Assembly (NCBI GenBank): GCA_965648905.1
Contig: CBFGIT010000001.1
Coordinates: 96,001 to 160,000, forward strand
DNA from: a candidate division WOR-3 bacterium
Lineage (GTDB): Bacteria; Hydrothermota; Tepidihabitantia; Tepidihabitantales; Tepidihabitantaceae
DNA: 64,000 bases
Reading direction: 5' to 3'
Part shown: positions 30,001 through 48,000 of the stretch, one piece after another
How positions within the stretch are numbered: position 1 is the first letter of the stretch
Layout: each line of letters begins with the position of its first letter
Program-made: the position numbers

Positions 30001-33000
30001 GCCAGCTTGCCTTCAGACATGCACCCTGGGGTCGCGGACTTAGGGTGCCGACTCGATATGTGTCGCTAGCGCCGACTCTGCTCCGAGGCATTTGGCCCCG
30101 CGCCGGTAACCCCGTCGCTGCCATCCGTTGGCTCCGACGTACTCGACGGCCCCTTGTTACCTTTCTGCGGCAGCTTCTCAAGCGCCGACGACGCGGCTGC
30201 CATGACGATGGAAACCAGAAGGAAGATAATCACGCCCCAGAACTGAGTCGGGAACGACACGACCTGTCCCCGCCCAAGACACCAGAGCAGGGACAAAGGC
30301 CAAACCATTGGGAGGAGGGGTATGACAAAGAGGAGTGGGTAGACGAGCCACATCCAGCGGGCAGGGACGCGCTTCAGGGCTAGCCGCTTGAGGGATCCCA
30401 ATTGACGGAGCCAAAAATGAGTTGCCAGCGCAGAAGCAAAGAGGACCAGCAGAAATAGCATTGCTGCAGGTATCCCGCGCGGGCGCGCGAACGAACCCAC
30501 GATGACAACACTCCACCATCCCAGGACCACGAGCTCAGCCAAAGCTAACAGCCGCGGCGGTTGCCATGTTGGACAACGTCGGAGCCGCACTGTCGCGCTC
30601 ACGCAGTACACGGCGGCAAGGAAGAGTATCGTTAAGACTACGATTGCCCGGTCGCAGTCGGGGATGATGTAGTCATTGCTGCTGGTTGAGATGTCGATGC
30701 GCGAATTGGCGCGGTCGTGGTCAACCGTAATCAGACTCAGGCGCCTCAGGTCGAAGCTCATGAAACTGGGCGAACCCCCGATATCGGTGAATATCGACTG
30801 CTCCGCCCCGGTTCTGCCAACCCGAGCGGCCTCAGACAACGCCATTGCCCCCCGCAACAGATCGCCACCGGGGTCTGACGATACGAGAGCGACAACCTCT
30901 CGACGACCGGGTCTGTACGTGACCGCAATCTCCTTCTTCCCCGAAATAGCTTTCATCTGCCTGGACTTACCATTCAGTCTGATTCCCAAGGCTTCCATGC
31001 CCGGTAATGAGAAGATGTGGGTAGTACAACGTGCTGCAGCCGACAAGAGCCATGGTGTCACAGCCGAGAGTTGGACGAATCGACCATCTCGTTCGACAGC
31101 GAACGGCCCGAGCTTCTTCTTCGGCAACTCAGAGTTGCACCAGTACGGAGGGTAGATGCAGATGGTGGTCGACTCACCAGTTGCTGAGAAGTCCAGTACA
31201 AATGGTTCAGCAGTACACAGCATCGCCAGTAAGCGGTCGATTGCCTCCCGCACCCTGGCAACGAGGACGGCTGGGTCCCTGTACTGCCATACCCTGACGG
31301 TCAGCGCGGTGTCGCTCAGATCCAGCCTCGGGCACAGGCGCTGCCACAACCTGCCGCGGTAGTATCTGGTCGTGTCACGTGGCCCCTTCTGGAGAAAGAC
31401 AGGGAGCAACACGACCAGTTCGTTGGCTGACTCGAAGAGCCGGACAGAGTTCTCAAACGACGAATCAGCCCGAGCCAAGTTTTCGCCATTGAGTACGACG
31501 CATGAGTTGTCTGACTCCTCGCTCCAGATGCCATCCGTGAGGATGATCGCGAGCTTCACCTTTCTGTCCTTGAGCTCATAACACGCGCGCGGTTCATCCT
31601 CTCTCCGGTCCTGCCCGAACCACCTGAACAAGTCGACCAACCTAGTCTGGGTGTCGGTGCAGCGCACCCTGTCGCACGGATCGAACCCGCGAACGGCATT
31701 ACCGAAGAGAAAAATGGGAATCCTTGTGCCGACGCGCACGACTGAGCCAGGCCGCTTCGCGACCATGTCGAGTAGGGTTTCGACAGCGTGACAGCTTTGT
31801 GAGACATCGAGGAACAAGGCAACCTCGACCGTCTGGTCCAGAGCACTGTAATCTAGCCCGGTCTCCACAACACACTGAGCAAGCTTCCTGTCAAGGAACA
31901 AACCCCGCTTGATCTTACACACGTACTGCACGAGTTTCCCGGCTTGCTCGCTCATGGGGGAGGTTCCTTCGATCTTCTGTTGTATGTACTCCTCAACATC
32001 CCTTCGCACTTGACCTGTCGGCAGCGTATCGTGTCGCAATATCAATTCCCGGCGGATGGACTGGTACGTAAGCACCGTGTCCTTCTTGTCGTATGCACGC
32101 AGGAACGTGCTGATCTGTTCGCACAACGAGTCACTCAGTACACCGAACGAGCTGACCAACACTGCCGACAACATGATAGTGTACATACGTCAGCTAACTC
32201 CCTTCTCATGAACCTGCACGTAATAACCAGCAGCACAGCTATCTATAGTCAACGCGTTGCCCGATCTACTGCTTGACCAGCCTCGCCCCGCCCCAAACCG
32301 ACCAGTCCCAGTAATTGTTCTCAACAGTCTCTACGATGAGGTCCATCTGCTGCGCGCCTTCGACGGAGACGGAAACGGTCTTGCGGTCATCCCAGTCCAT
32401 GACTCCGCTGTCATAGACCTTCTTGCCGTCGAGCCAGACCTGGAAGATGACGCTGCCGCGGCCACCCGCAAAGTCGCCCGGCACACCACGTCTGGGATTG
32501 CCGGCGTCCCATAGTCCGATGTCGCTTTCAAACCGCTTGTACCGCCCGTTCAGTTTCCACCGCAGCCTAGCTGGTGCGTGTGTATGAAGTCCTCGTCGGT
32601 AGGTCGTTCCGCAGATGACAATGGGTCGTCCTCTGAAAGCGTCCTTCTCTAGTTCACACTGTTCAACTTCGGCCGGCTGAAGGTCGCTGACGTACACCGT
32701 TTCCTCGGGCGGCGGTGGCGGCTTGGTGGCGTGTTCAATATGTCGAAGGATGACCGCATCCAGATAGGTCTCTGCTTTGTGCGTGATCGTCCAGTCTTGG
32801 TCATAGACCACAACCGCGGGCGGCTTGACGTCGAGCCTGCGAAGGAAATCCCGTTCGGCAATGGCGTTCTCGAAGCTGATGCCGGCTCCGGCCACGAATC
32901 TCCGGGCCTCAACAGTATCGTCCGGATACGCCAGCACGCCGATGACTCTGAGCAGGTCTGAGCGAGTCTGCCGCGCCAACCGGTCAAGGGTTTTCATGTC

Positions 33001-45000: not shown

Positions 45001-48000
45001 GCCGTCGTGCCGCTTCAGAGAGAACTCAAGACCCGGCACTAGTCTGACGTACTCCTGCCCGTCAGTCAGCCTGTACCGCATCGCCGGCCGGAAAACGTGC
45101 CCGACGTCAACCTTCCCCAGCGTATCACGCTCCATAATCAGCTCGCCGGTATCGCTGTCAATCCGGCACTGGACATCCCGGTCGTGCAGCCGGGCAAAGA
45201 CCTGGAGCCGCCGCTGCCCCAGCAATGGTTTGACCAGCCGATAAGTCACCAGGCACGCGGCGATGACCAGTGCCAGTATCACGAGCAGCAGCAGGGCCGG
45301 CAAGGGCCCGTAGTCGGCCTCCAGCGGTATCGTCACCAGAGTGCTGCAACTGACGGTTCTTTCGCTCAACTCAGCGGGCAGTCGGTTGATTCCGAACACC
45401 TTGCCCTCGCGACGAGCATCTTCCGGAGTAGCCGCGTCGTACTTCGTCTGGTACTCGCGCGTCAGCGACAGGTCGCTTGGCCGGATGCTGACGACCACCG
45501 GCAGTTCCATCGGTGCATTGACCCTGCCGCCGGCGAACGCTGCCTTCAGCAGGCTGCCGGTCAGCGTCACCTTGCTCTTGTAGCGCATCTTGAACCCGGG
45601 ACCGGTGCTCTGGCCCGGACCCAGCCCCGGAAGTGTAGTGGGCTGAACGCTGTACTTCACAGGTGCGAGGCCGAGCCCGGACTTGCCTGCTGCGGCCGTG
45701 CGAATCAGTCTTGGCGTGTCGATCTTCGCACTCGAGAAGCTGATATGGCTGAAGCAACTGACGAATCCAATCTGGACCGAATCGCAGATGCTCTGGCCCA
45801 GGATGTACTTGCGGGCCCGGGGTTTGTGCACCGGCTCGGCCTTCACGGTGTTCCGGCCCAGAGGCTTAACGAGGAGTGCTTCGGTCTGGTAGTTCTTCTG
45901 AACACGCCCGGAAAGAGCGCTCTTCATCTGCTCGAACCGCGCGTCCTGGTTCCAGTCAAGCAGCAGCGCATACACGGTCAAGCCCTGTGTTCCCGCAGGC
46001 TGCAGAATCGGAAAGAAGTAGACCTTCTTGACTCGAGGTCCTTTGAGCAACTCGTAGAACTTGTCCAGGTGTGCGCCTTCCGGATTGCCCGGCTGGTGCT
46101 GGATGTTGTCGGTGACAATCCAACCGATGTCGTACTTGCGGTCGAGCACGTACTTCGCCGCCTTGTCAATCTCGGTGAACGACCAGGCGAAGTTCTCGTA
46201 GGCAAAATCCTTGTCGCCTGTTGACTTGACCGGCTTGACTTCTGTGCTGAACACGGCCAGGTCGGGCTTGCCGTACTCGCTGCATACGGCAAGCAGGACA
46301 CGGGTGAGGTCTTCGACTGAACCGCGCTCGAAGTAAGGCTTCATGCTGCCTGACCGGTCAACGAGCACTACCTGACCGGCCAGTGCAAGTTGGCCAAGAA
46401 GGACGAATCCGACCAGCCGTGTCAACCTTGCCATATCAGCGCCCTCATCTCCTGCTGGTTGGTGACGTAGATGTGCATGAGGCCATTTCCAATCGGGATG
46501 AACGTGACACCTTCAGCATAGTCCTTCAGTTGTGCCACACGCAGCTCTCCATGTTCGCGTGCCGGGCCGTAGAATCTGATGGTGCCGCCCGCGGTCGGCG
46601 CAACTCGACCGATGGTCACGCCGCTCACATGGCCGGGCAGGCCGTCAGGGACGAGTTCCTCATCCTCTGTCAGCTTAGTGAAGCTGCAACCGCTGTATTT
46701 GACAATCGCCCCCTTGGTGTGGAGTAGTGGTTCACCCGTCTCGCTATCCTGACAAATGACCATCGACTCACCCTTAGGCAGGATGGCAGGTGTACACACG
46801 AGCCTGGAATCGAGACTGCCGATAACGGAGAGCGCCGGCTTTCCGTTTCTCGTCCCAAGCACATAGGCAGAACTAGAGCTCACAAAGCAGGGCATGGTGC
46901 CAACTGCGGTATGCACACCCGCACTCTGCCGTCCCTCCTGGGGTGTCAGGAATGGCTGGAACCCCTTGGGCCAGTCAAGTGCCGCAACGCCGTTGTCTGA
47001 CAACACATGCACGGCCTCGGCCGTGTAGCAGAAAACACGCCCGCGGAAGAACCACGGGCCTGCCACCTGACCTTCGGTGACGACAGGAATTGCCTTTGCG
47101 TTCTCGGGCGCGTCACGCGGAACTTGGACGAGTTCAGCAGCAGTCCCTTTCTGAGCTAGCAGATACCACGCGCCGAGGCTGGGGTCTTCTGCCAGCAGGT
47201 GGCAGTTGTTCTCGATGTCCGACAGGAAGCGGTCGTGTCCGACAGCGGAGCAGACCTGATGCCAGCCCCTGGTCACCAGGTTAACGGCAACCAGATGCTC
47301 GCTGCTGGCAGCCAGCCCCACCGGGACCTTTGTCTTGTCTGACTTGCTCGACCGCACGGAGAGCAGCAGCGAGGAACGTCCGAACTCCTCGGGCAGAGAG
47401 ACAATCAACTCGGCTTGCTTGGCGCGAAGCGCCAGCCGGTAGAAACGGCCGCTTGCGGTCAAGAACCAAAGGAACTGGGCCAACATCTTCGGTGGTTCGC
47501 GGATGACGTCTGGCACTTCAACCAGTTGTGGAGTTGGGGGCTCAGGCAACTGTTTGCCTTCGGTCGAGGAAGGAACCGTAGAGGTCGAAGGGCCGCCAAA
47601 GCCAGGGTAGTACCGACTCAGGGTGCGGCTGATATTGGTGAAGTCGGAGATTCTTGCTCTATTGACTTCCCCGCCGCAGCACCGACAGAACTGCGCCAAG
47701 GTCTGATTGACGGCACTGCACTTCGGCTTCGCGCAGACACTCGCCGGTCGTCCGCACTCAGCGCACCACGCTGCGTTGTCAATACGTTCCATCACGCTGC
47801 TGTTACAGCCTGGGTATGGACAACCAGTCCGGAAACGTTCCGGATAACGTGAATCTATGCCGACGTCTTCTGCCATTCTGGTTCTGATTACCTCACAAAC
47901 TAACGGCTCGTCTCCTCTTGAGGCCAAACTGGCCGACTGAATAGGAAAATATACGTACCTTGGCCTGGCAGTCAAGCACTTCCTCGACTCTCCGGAACCA

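Follow-up and report, generated by a model that had tools for sequence, protein, structure and literature searches.

The closest published systems are of two kinds: the FtsZl1-vWA operons described in 2010 (PMC2875224) and the 'GTPase-centric' conflict systems with tubulin, HSP70 and GrpE predicted in 2020 (PMC7159879). In the former, an FtsZl1/Tubulin_2 protein of ~1000–1150 aa follows a vWA/MIDAS protein that is often membrane-bound, more membrane proteins are found in the same predicted operon, and a membrane-remodelling or vesicle-forming role was proposed (Makarova & Koonin 2010, PMC2875224). The main text of that paper leaves Hsp70 and GrpE unmentioned; its supplement 5 contains, without comment, a 1083-aa 'COG0576 GrpE' that follows FtsZl1 in Chloroflexus aggregans, as well as a 1626-aa 'COG0443 DnaK' in a Magnetospirillum operon. 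In the GAP1-N2-type DO-GTPase-centric systems (PMC7159879), tubulin and vWA genes occur as well as HSP70 and GrpE genes, together with N-terminal Zn ribbons and beta-sandwich repeats. For one class of systems of Kaur et al., exemplified by Esr of oral Actinobacteria, experiments now support a role in signalling across the envelope (bioRxiv 10.64898/2026.09.08.750141).

The locus analysed here lies in a window of 64,000 nucleotides (the whole stretch of DNA examined, on which all coordinates are counted) from a candidate division WOR-3 bacterium. It shares with the FtsZl1-vWA operons the vWA-FtsZl1 order and the additional membrane proteins, but it has none of the kinases, OmpA-like proteins or diverged GTPases found in those operons (PMC2875224), and it carries Hsp70-like and GrpE-like genes. 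With the DO-GTPase-centric systems it shares the gene themes, Zn ribbons and beta-sandwich repeats; however, neither DO-GTPase nor GAP1, which define those systems, was found in its nine genes. Tubulin and HSP70/GrpE themes are called non-overlapping in section 29 of PMC7159879, yet here they form one operon, whose GrpE-like proteins have membrane anchors and whose Hsp70 itself incorporates the beta-sandwich repeats; the phyla named there for these systems do not include Acidobacteriota or Latescibacterota. Esr, a threat-sensing MoxR-vWA pathway, resembles the locus in combining an NTPase 'chaperone', vWA and surface sensor domains, but it is built from a MoxR AAA+ ATPase, kinases and FHA proteins, and the text that describes it contains 0 occurrences of tubulin, Hsp70 or GrpE (bioRxiv 10.64898/2026.09.08.750141). 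The locus has in common with canonical DnaK-GrpE an Hsp70 nucleotide-binding domain with conserved catalytic positions, a beta substrate-binding domain and a GrpE-type module, but it lacks the lid and a J-protein, and its GrpE-like modules are built into two membrane proteins, 397 and 1087 aa long.

Operon layout and the FtsZl1-vWA genes

Nine ORFs, g109 to g101, run head to tail on the minus strand, which bears out the earlier note's nine co-directional genes. They are spaced by -13, -11, 11, 46, -4, 70, -4 and 79 nt, the start of g104 overlapping the stop of g105 by 4 nt. The first gene begins at 47876 and not at 47486 as previously given, homologues aligning from residues 8–19 of the long form. 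About 70 nt 5' of g109 stands the only promoter-like site among the nine genes (TTGACT-16-TATATT, 47948..47975, minus strand), recognised solely by its match to 10 of 12 consensus positions. Overlaps, short gaps and the lone promoter-like site define the nine genes as a tight predicted operon. A divergent promoter-like site (48115-48142, plus strand) faces a TrkA-like gene.

The first product, g109 (46422..47876, minus strand; 484 aa), is cytoplasmic and has an N-terminal double Zn ribbon with CxxC pairs, followed by a beta-rich body for which Atlas suggests a PQQ/NHL beta-propeller at 0.75, as a lead only; its homologue at locus L006 matches Pfam DZR (0.0019). It is followed by g108 (44905..46434, minus strand; 509 aa), a membrane protein with an N-terminal anchor (7-25), a predicted extracytoplasmic vWA-like domain, another TM segment (378-396) and a cytoplasmic tail; topology throughout the operon was predicted by a simple hydropathy scan. 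The DxSxS-type MIDAS motif DRSGS stands at residue 26. The claim of two vWA/MIDAS proteins holds at the level of this motif, which occurs in g108 and g101; the Pfam vWA match is sub-threshold in g108 (vWA-TerF-like, E 0.042) and absent from g101, although the g108 homologue at locus L011 matches VWA_2 (0.0066). Next to g108 is g107 (44286..44915, minus strand; 209 aa), which has four hydrophobic segments and whose place is taken by an ORF of 158-193 aa in 7 loci examined.

Identification of g106 (41026..44274, minus strand; 1082 aa) as an FtsZl1 GTPase was confirmed by the Pfam Tubulin_2 match over residues 16-402 (2.1e-57). Across 11 orthologues GGTGK (21-25) and GGTGxG (188-193) do not vary, and invariant residues extend to position 970, within a long conserved C-terminal extension.

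The operon ends in two lineage-specific genes. The protein g102 (32266..33798, minus strand; 510 aa) has a hydrophobic region at its N-terminus and an NPCBM/NEW2 carbohydrate-binding module (Pfam, 7.1e-30) at its C-terminus; a homologue was found only in metagenome contig L084. The membrane protein g101 (30066..32186, minus strand; 706 aa) is vWA-like by its DxSxS motif only, has about six C-terminal TM segments and no Pfam family, and its sole homologue, again in L084, is partial (30% over 239 aa).

Hsp70-like and GrpE-homologous proteins

The 886-aa product of g105 (38319..40979, minus strand) consists of a Zn ribbon (8-31), three Ig-like domains (33-330), an Hsp70-type nucleotide-binding domain (333-760; 38700..39983, minus strand) and a beta substrate-binding domain (761-886). 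Its Pfam HSP70 match was reproduced (2e-08; 33.4 bits, cut-off 20.6), as were its 24 cluster representatives at E<=1e-30, 20 of them 838-946 aa long. It scores 36 bits against the NCBIfam DnaK equivalog (cut-off 648). An AF2 model built from an 82-row alignment (pLDDT 90.9) further supports the Hsp70 likeness: residues 335-886 superpose on DnaK 2-504 (VIA-align; Z 32.5, rmsd 3.6, 448 residues), and the best Foldseek matches are ATP-state full-length Hsp70s, with canonical DnaK-GrpE structures such as 4ani and 9bls also in the list. The earlier description as a full Hsp70 is correct for the nucleotide-binding and beta substrate-binding domains but not for the alpha-helical lid, which is absent because the DnaK match stops at 504, where g105 ends. 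D341, G343, T344, K410, E497, D528, G530, G532, T533 and D535 are near-invariant (>=90% of 82 sequences), and G531 and T534 are invariant in a 20-sequence alignment; judged from these alignments, the phosphate-binding and catalytic positions of Hsp70 are conserved in the family.

Two further products carry GrpE-homologous modules that, by profile comparison, are paralogous to each other. The first is g104 (37129..38322, minus strand; 397 aa), a membrane-anchored protein with TM segments at 4-22 and 97-115, a coiled coil and a C-terminal module (246-395; 37138..37587, minus strand). The second, g103 (33795..37058, minus strand; 1087 aa), combines a cytoplasmic N-domain, GrpE-like module(s) (373-522; 35493..35942, minus strand), a coiled coil, 4-5 TM segments, an SH3 domain (SH3_3, 1e-08) and two PEGA domains (6e-23). 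The borderline Pfam GrpE match of g103, at residues 455-519, was recovered with the same values (8.7e-06; 25.9 bits against a cut-off of 25.8), and profile comparisons now reinforce it: the g103-family module aligns with canonical GrpE at Prob 74.4 and, with no shared sequence, with the g104 module at Prob 99.2 and E 2.6e-19 (hhalign). Pfam GrpE is absent from g104, and profiles of the GrpE-like proteins at whole length did not find GrpE. Ten trimmed g104-family modules nevertheless match 11 canonical GrpE sequences over 139 columns (hhalign; Prob 88.9, E 2.4e-6), whereas the reversed alignment gave 0.2% and none of 40 block-shuffles reached the real score. A 17-module profile (A7) searched against 177,635 PDB sequences retrieved the GrpE chains 3a6m_A (E 7e-6; residues 21-166 of 177 covered) and 8gb3_E (7.2e-5), and nothing else below E 0.1; the converged module profile matches all 11 canonical GrpE sequences (hhalign Prob 96.3). 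Relative to GrpE, the module takes in the helix, the four-helix bundle and the beta-domain. The genome also encodes a separate canonical GrpE. The most widely conserved GrpE-like partner, overlooked earlier, is g104, directly after the Hsp70-like gene.

Recurrence of the gene order

All nine genes occur in the same order on contig L084, with g102-g109 50-78% identical. Of 11 metagenome loci, 9 have FtsZl1 immediately upstream of the Hsp70-like gene, and the other 2 contigs end at that point. A survey of 80 loci that carry the closest relatives of FtsZl1 bears out the synteny and extends it, in agreement with the earlier view of a conserved cassette. The Hsp70-like gene lies <=2 kb downstream of FtsZl1 on the same strand in 34 loci and elsewhere in 7; 8 have only a homologue of its N-terminal part, 9 have none and 22 were not evaluable for this gene. 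A GrpE-like module follows within <=5 kb on the same strand in 34 of the 42 loci with an Hsp70-like gene, and upstream of FtsZl1 a g108-like gene is found in 55/80 loci and a g109-like gene in 39/80. Recurrence in Acidobacteriota, as noted earlier, is correct but too narrow, as record titles assign loci with this order to six phyla or more. In eight loci from Acidobacteriaceae g109, g108 and FtsZl1 are retained but the Hsp70 body is missing, so a tubulin-vWA core need not be accompanied by the chaperone. Among 401 sampled Acidobacteriota the Hsp70-like gene was found in one, the centre genome itself.

Candidate roles of the cassette

The analysis directly supports what each part is and how it folds, the topology predicted for it, the compactness of the operon and the conservation of gene order between phyla. 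Beyond this, we give roughly an even chance to an envelope-spanning FtsZl1-vWA/MIDAS system with a dedicated Hsp70 machine and an accessory threat-response or conflict role. Such a machine would comprise the cytoplasmic lid-less Hsp70 and, as nucleotide-exchange factors of the GrpE type, the membrane-anchored g104 and g103, whose modules would lie at the inner face of the membrane, recruit Hsp70 and return it from the ADP to the ATP state. Hsp70 would then spend ATP at the membrane to assemble, hold or dismantle polymers of FtsZl1 or complexes that contain vWA proteins, while the outward domains (vWA MIDAS, SH3, PEGA and NPCBM; WD40 in other lineages) probably anchor to the wall or sense ligands. 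A conflict role fits by analogy with the mostly predicted systems of Kaur et al. 2020 (PMC7159879). The PADLOC defence models gave no match below E 0.001 in the nine proteins, with two faint g103 matches near 0.01. A type III-A CRISPR locus lies 12 kb from the cassette; an argument from a defence island is weak because of this distance and the housekeeping genes in between.

A rather unlikely alternative is a housekeeping cytoskeleton in which FtsZl1 polymers and vWA proteins shape the inner membrane or vesicles and Hsp70/GrpE serves merely as an assembly chaperone. Most components have predicted TM segments or are membrane-adjacent, the FtsZl1-vWA pairing is widespread (PMC2875224 and the 80-locus survey), the C-terminal extension of FtsZl1 is strongly conserved, and Pfam detects no effector-like enzyme domain in the nine genes, all of which would suit such a role. 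However, the distribution is very patchy (Hsp70-like gene found in 0/40 and Tubulin_2 in 4/40 same-order relatives), a genome of the same genus carries FtsZl1 of another type, C-terminal outer domains vary among lineages (WD40 versus SH3/PEGA), and Bryobacteraceae loci have an RHS-repeat protein after the cassette. Because of the patchy distribution and variable outer domains, an accessory threat-response or conflict role fits better than housekeeping.

Membrane-tethered Hsp70 motors that pull or hold are exemplified by mitochondrial mtHsp70-Tim44-Mge1. A motor of this kind, inserting, exporting or folding the vWA, SH3, PEGA and NPCBM proteins of the operon with FtsZl1 as a scaffold, would agree with the retained beta substrate-binding domain, the membrane-anchored GrpE-like partners and the large extracytoplasmic domains predicted for several products. 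We consider it improbable, as no translocon-like protein and no J-domain (neither an HPD motif nor a DnaJ Pfam match) was found in the nine genes, and the Hsp70/GrpE module tracks FtsZl1 and not a particular exported protein. It is very doubtful that g103 is the sole GrpE-like partner and g104 an unrelated coiled-coil membrane protein: g103 alone passes the Pfam cut-off and carries PF01025 in its precomputed annotation, but the g104-family module is the closer of the two to GrpE, all 11 aligned rows for the gene that follows the Hsp70-like one in the first locus set end in the shared GrpE-like block (row L087 being the second gene after it), and the g103 N-terminal domain occurs in just 2/80 loci. 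The hhalign match, shuffle controls, PDB profile search and converged profile all contradict an unrelated g104. That the nine genes simply adjoin without a functional link is scarcely credible in view of the overlapping stop and start codons, the order recurring across six phyla by record titles and the conservation counts.

The operon analysed here differs from the published themes in having no P-loop GTPase and in anchoring its GrpE-like proteins in the membrane. Read from its genes, the operon points to a predicted membrane machine present in several bacterial phyla.

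Layout of the operon and its FtsZ-like and vWA-like proteins

On the minus strand of the window, nine open reading frames lie head to tail from 30066 to about 47.9 kb (g109 to g101 in the order of transcription), and the gaps between them (-13, -11, 11, 46, -4, 70, -4 and 79 nt) are overlaps or spacers of at most 79 nt. This confirms the nine co-directional genes reported in the earlier note, the overall interpretation of which is supported by the present analysis. Its Pfam figures were reproduced exactly (Tubulin_2 2.1e-57, HSP70 2e-08 and GrpE 8.7e-06, besides PEGA, SH3_3 and NPCBM), and its search for representatives of the Hsp70-like family, when repeated, likewise yielded 24 proteins at E<=1e-30, 20 of them 838-946 aa long. 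The upstream edge of the cassette had to be moved from 47486, where it had been placed, to 47876; this start of g109 yields a 484-aa protein with an N-terminal double Zn ribbon, and alignments with homologues begin at residues 8-19 of that form. The sole strong promoter-like site on the minus strand that falls in non-coding sequence is at 47975-47948, and shuffling the sequence did not lower the frequency of terminator-like sites. Elsewhere in the window, ARAGORN reported two tRNAs of 95-96 nt, longer than usual, at 748-842 and 59498-59593 (Arg-tcg and Leu-aag).

Residues 16-402 of the FtsZ-like protein g106 (FtsZl1) match the Tubulin_2 profile with 195.4 bits against a cut-off of 27. The motifs GGTGK (21-25) and GGTGxG (188-193), which we take to be the glycine-rich nucleotide-binding motifs of the tubulin/FtsZ superfamily, are invariant across 11 orthologues; we know of no FtsZl1 protein with an assigned function. 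Both g108 and g101 carry a DxSxS motif and are vWA-like by that motif, the Pfam vWA match being sub-threshold in g108 and absent in g101. The adjacent vWA gene that characterizes the operons of Makarova and Koonin (2010, PMC2875224) is represented here by the vWA-like g108, with its DxSxS motif and sub-threshold Pfam match.

The Hsp70-like protein and its GrpE-like partners

Structure prediction for the Hsp70-like protein g105 from its single sequence reached a pLDDT of only 37.8, and an AlphaFold2 model from an 82-row alignment was used instead (pLDDT 90.9, pTM 0.80). In the model, a Zn ribbon is followed by three Ig-like domains, each all-beta (residues 33-330), by an NBD (333-760) and by an all-beta C-terminal domain of 125 residues; the top Foldseek matches of the model are full-length ATP-bound Hsp70s. 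VIA-align placed residues 335-886 onto residues 2-504 of DnaK (Z 32.5, rmsd 3.6 Å over 448 residues), and this part therefore reads as NBD, linker and SBD-beta. A beta-sandwich substrate-binding domain is thus predicted behind the NBD. The alpha-helical lid (SBD-alpha) is absent, as the C-terminus aligns at about DnaK residue 504 and the last 125 residues are all beta; the protein had been described as a full Hsp70, which holds for NBD and SBD-beta but not for the lid, at the expected beginning of which g105 ends. The Pfam HSP70 score is 33.4 bits (cut-off 20.6), the motifs DYGTSAS, DESLAA and DFGGGTTD align with those of DnaK, and K410 (presumably DnaK K70, judging by the motif), E497, D528 and T533, like the phosphate-binding motifs, reach a conservation of 90% or more among 82 family members. 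Because it scores 36.1 bits against a cut-off of 648 with the NCBIfam DnaK equivalog, g105 is not a DnaK orthologue. The beta-sandwich domains gave just weak Pfam matches to DUF1573 and HYDIN-type Ig domains.

The earlier note had recognized a single GrpE-like protein, g103; its likeness to GrpE stands, and a second, better-conserved GrpE-like partner, g104, had been missed. By Pfam alone, g103 scores 25.9 bits against a GrpE cut-off of 25.8 and g104 has no GrpE match. The start of g104 and the stop of g105 share 4 nt, and the genes directly 3' of the Hsp70-like gene, g104 among them, share a C-terminal block when aligned; in a Bryobacterales locus (L011) this first gene has a C-terminal Pfam GrpE match of 25.4 bits, the only one among the 11 members of the g104 family. 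The whole-length profile of that family (A4) found no GrpE in the PDB and reached Prob 35 against canonical GrpE in hhalign. Whole-length profiles were too insensitive, and the signal emerged once the alignments were trimmed to their last 150 residues and compared with a set of 11 canonical GrpE sequences drawn from this genome and related ones. The trimmed g104-family module (10 sequences) then matched canonical GrpE with Prob 88.9 and E 2.4e-6 over 139 columns, the g103-family module (7 sequences) with Prob 74.4, and the two modules matched each other with Prob 99.2 although they had no sequence in common. In controls, a reversed GrpE alignment gave Prob 0.2, and the real scores (44.2 and 37.5) lay above those of all 40 block-shuffled alignments (maxima of 20.5 and 26.9, respectively). 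An HMM of all 17 modules (A7), run against all PDB sequences, ranked Thermus GrpE first (3a6m_A, E 7e-6, residues 21-166 of a 177-residue chain) and GrpE 8gb3_E second (7.2e-5), with the next match at E 0.78. When iterated over 80 further loci, the module profile converged after six rounds, matched 11 of 11 canonical GrpE sequences and reached an hhalign Prob of 96.3. The profile homology spans the helix, bundle and beta-domain core of GrpE, and on this sequence evidence we conclude that g104 and g103 both carry genuine GrpE-homologous modules. An initial hhalign Prob of 100 between alignments A6 and A4 was an artefact of one sequence common to both, and the comparison was repeated without shared rows; the weak match of A6 to A5 (Prob 2.9) is due to misalignment of the module in A6. 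Word-index searches with g104 and g103 returned only the queries themselves and their homologues on contig L084.

GrpE proper is a soluble dimeric factor that speeds nucleotide release from Hsp70, whereas g104 and g103 are predicted by hydropathy to be membrane proteins whose GrpE-like part lies on the side without a signal or anchor, presumably in the cytoplasm. We know of no membrane-anchored GrpE, and a full-text literature search found none. In a complex prediction, the NBD of g105 and residues 225-397 of g104 gave an uninformative score of 0.01. The protein at the g103 position keeps its GrpE-like module and varies at the far end, which bears WD40 repeats in Bryobacterales loci and SH3 and PEGA domains in the window. 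A gene for an RHS-repeat protein of about 1563 aa lies on the same strand directly 3' of the WD40-bearing GrpE-like gene in Bryobacteraceae loci (L075:15310-20001, L081:15221-19915 and L092:228-4925). The first 300 residues of g103 (33795-37058) are conserved and resemble MreB/MamK actin-like proteins in a language-model Atlas (0.91; about 100-110 of 256 features); an actin/MreB-like reading of this part was unconfirmed by hhalign against the Hsp70-like NBD (Prob 0.2).

Conservation and distribution of the cassette

As a query for locus retrieval, g105 alone found no loci, alignment A1, from which generic Hsp70 patterns were used, returned 65 loci with FtsZl1 in only three (L006, L007 and L011), and a family-specific degenerate DNA pattern performed better, with eight genome loci and 11 metagenome loci, several of which duplicate one another. 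Four of the eight genome loci are syntenic Bryobacterales loci and the other four are cyanobacterial genes of weak likeness. These last (L076, L077, L078 and L082; Rivularia, Nostoc, Scytonema and one unclassified) share the motif pair DFGGGTTD...GxWGD with g105, and no FtsZl1 match was found within their loci. Directly upstream of the Hsp70-like gene, nine of the 11 metagenome loci have an FtsZl1 homologue, and the other two are truncated by the end of the contig. All nine genes are present, in unchanged order, on one metagenome contig (L084), g102-g109 at 50-78% identity and g101 partially (30% over 239 aa), along with the transglutaminase-like gene that flanks the cassette in the window.

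As a less biased set, we took the 80 best loci for an alignment of 11 FtsZl1 orthologues, with one genome per species, and scanned them with HMMs. An Hsp70-like gene on the same strand and at most 2 kb downstream of FtsZl1 was found in 34 loci (among them one fragmented gene, one that begins at a distance of 1.6 kb and three that cover the model in part), and elsewhere in the locus in seven. A further eight loci, from Acidobacteriaceae, have no more than a short gene with homology to the first ~100 Hsp70-like residues, nine have no Hsp70-like gene, and 22 offer less than 2.5 kb of downstream sequence and could not be evaluated. Of the 42 loci in which an Hsp70-like gene was present, 34 have a GrpE-like module at most 5 kb downstream and on the same strand, several of the eight misses being loci cut short; just one GrpE-like match came from a locus without a strong Hsp70-like match. 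Upstream of FtsZl1, a g108-like gene was found in 55 and a g109-like gene in 39 of the 80 loci. By these counts, the conserved core therefore consists of g109, g108, the small membrane protein, FtsZl1, the Hsp70-like protein and one or two GrpE-like genes, and g102 and g101 are specific to the lineage of the window. The recurrence of the core order in Acidobacteriota, claimed earlier, is borne out, and the distribution is much wider than then described: judging by record titles, carriers include Bryobacterales, Pyrinomonadaceae, Blastocatellia and Thermoanaerobaculia within Acidobacteriota, and further Latescibacterota, an Eubacteriales MAG, Vulcanimicrobiota (Xenobia), Gemmatimonadota (Longimicrobium) and Planctomycetota. 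In the eight Acidobacteriaceae loci (L119-L121, L124, L125, L131, L134 and L144), the short gene that follows FtsZl1 measures 126-283 aa in the three for which ORFs were listed and matches only the first ~100 positions, i.e., the Zn-ribbon end, of the Hsp70-like profile; no Hsp70-like ATPase was found within 10 kb.

Nearer to the window, in 40 genomes that share its order, one of them also its genus, the Hsp70-like gene was not found, and Tubulin_2 was found in four. The FtsZl1 of the same-genus genome belongs to a different vWA-FtsZl1 type and has no BLAST likeness to g106. It forms a pair with a vWA gene (L106, G001:C34:1-19000; 700 and 1027 aa for vWA and FtsZl1, a different subfamily), next to genes for a dCTP deaminase-like, a Cas_APE2256/HD and a Cas10-palm-like protein, a neighbourhood with a defence-type look. 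Among 400 Acidobacteriota sampled around one carrier, no further g105 match was found at E<=1e-30 (the carrier being one of 401), a figure that may be an undercount since two candidates were scored per genome. Both flank genes of the cassette were not found in 12 relatives, which leaves an empty-site comparison without basis. No g105 homologues were found on phages and just a weak Halorubrum Hsp70-family match on plasmids, and PADLOC 2.0 matched none of the nine proteins at E <0.001, with two chance-level matches of g103 near 0.01. The window also contains a complete type III-A CRISPR-Cas locus at 8248-17050 (Cas10, Csm2-5, Csx1/CARF-HEPN, Cas1 and Cas2), the Cas genes lying 12 kb upstream of the cassette with housekeeping-type genes between; a 578-aa HEAT-repeat protein adjoins it at 18871-20607 (PADLOC candidate model HEAT-ARM_XIII, 3.8e-31).

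Relation to published systems and proposed function

FtsZl1 and its operons with vWA proteins were defined by Makarova and Koonin (2010, PMC2875224), whose main text makes no mention of Hsp70 or GrpE; its supplement 5 lists, undiscussed, a 1083-aa protein of a 'GrpE' COG that follows FtsZl1 in Chloroflexus aggregans and, for an operon of Magnetospirillum, a 1626-aa protein of a 'DnaK' COG. The GTPase-centric conflict systems of Kaur et al. (2020, PMC7159879) are defined by a DO-GTPase and a GAP1 protein, and their variable gene sets hold either tubulin and vWA or HSP70 and GrpE, themes termed non-overlapping. Zn ribbons also occur in these systems, as do SH3 or PEGA domains located past TM segments, and the cassette shares with them a common vocabulary of parts (Zn ribbons, tubulin, vWA-like, HSP70, GrpE and SH3/PEGA). 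It differs from them in having no P-loop GTPase, in uniting the tubulin and HSP70/GrpE themes in one operon, in its beta-sandwich repeats fused to Hsp70 and in the predicted membrane anchors of its GrpE-like proteins. For the TRAFAC DO-GTPase, the nine proteins gave no GTPase Pfam match and a lone Walker A-like string, GIRLNGKS in g101; GAP1-type Pfam families were not reported at E<=0.1, the presence of such models in the library being unconfirmed. The FNIII-repeat component described by Kaur et al. has a candidate counterpart in the three beta-sandwich domains fused N-terminally to the Hsp70. Full-text searches on FtsZ-like/vWA/Hsp70/GrpE themes returned no description of the arrangement, the neighbourhood source data of Kaur et al. 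lying outside this comparison. The cassette is a variant of known yet uncharacterised kinds of system. A 2026 preprint (bioRxiv 10.64898/2026.09.08.750141) offers experimental support for MoxR-vWA as a trans-envelope threat-sensing pathway, which belongs to a different class of Kaur et al. from the present cassette. The same genome holds, outside the window, a second dedicated Hsp70/GrpE pair (G000 contig C51, L109:1114-10220) in the order AAA ATPase, Ser/Thr kinase-AAA fusion, FGE-sulfatase domain, HEAT, divergent GrpE (182 aa, 43.6 bits), Hsp70-like (540 aa) and FGE-sulfatase, which recalls the FGS-domain conflict systems as presented by Kaur et al. (PMC7159879).

What is observed are the parts with their folds or homologies, the gene order and the co-inheritance, and the mechanism we put forward, with roughly even confidence, is a GrpE-like-tethered Hsp70 that would act on FtsZl1 or the vWA proteins and be tied to the envelope. 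On the inner side of the membrane, the lid-less Hsp70 would be held and recycled by the two GrpE-like modules; with its SBD-beta and Ig-like domains it would assemble or dismantle FtsZl1 polymers or vWA complexes; and the outward domains would link its activity to the envelope. The lack of a J-protein in the cassette counts against this reading, as does the Acidobacteriaceae variant without the Hsp70 body. Membrane remodelling, which Makarova and Koonin (2010) proposed for FtsZl1 and vWA operons, appears unlikely to us as a housekeeping role of the cassette, and a membrane-tethered pulling motor serving the operon's own exported proteins is highly improbable.

The tethered Hsp70 may also be read more specifically, in a form that we consider distinctly improbable: envelope binding by the outer domains of the two membrane-anchored GrpE paralogues, perhaps as a heterodimer, would be coupled to ADP release from the lid-less Hsp70, which would in turn gate polymerisation of the tubulin-like GTPase, a new mode of transmembrane signalling. 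If this were true, chaperone nucleotide exchange would be a transmembrane signalling step. The same family of ~900-aa Ig-Hsp70 proteins may serve other polymerising GTPases; in a single case, a Planctomycetaceae MAG (L028:6566-11620), a distant g105 homologue of about 900 aa lies directly 3' of a gene for a dynamin-family rather than a tubulin-like GTPase. Bacteria rarely have Hsp70 systems dedicated to tasks other than general proteostasis, and the cassette presents a compact, testable set of parts, in which a tubulin-like GTPase is joined by a minimal Hsp70 and by two putative tethered exchange factors, and which is conserved in several phyla. It could reveal how a chaperone cycle couples to a cytoskeletal polymer at the membrane, and could offer a first way into the tubulin/HSP70 branch among the predicted conflict systems.
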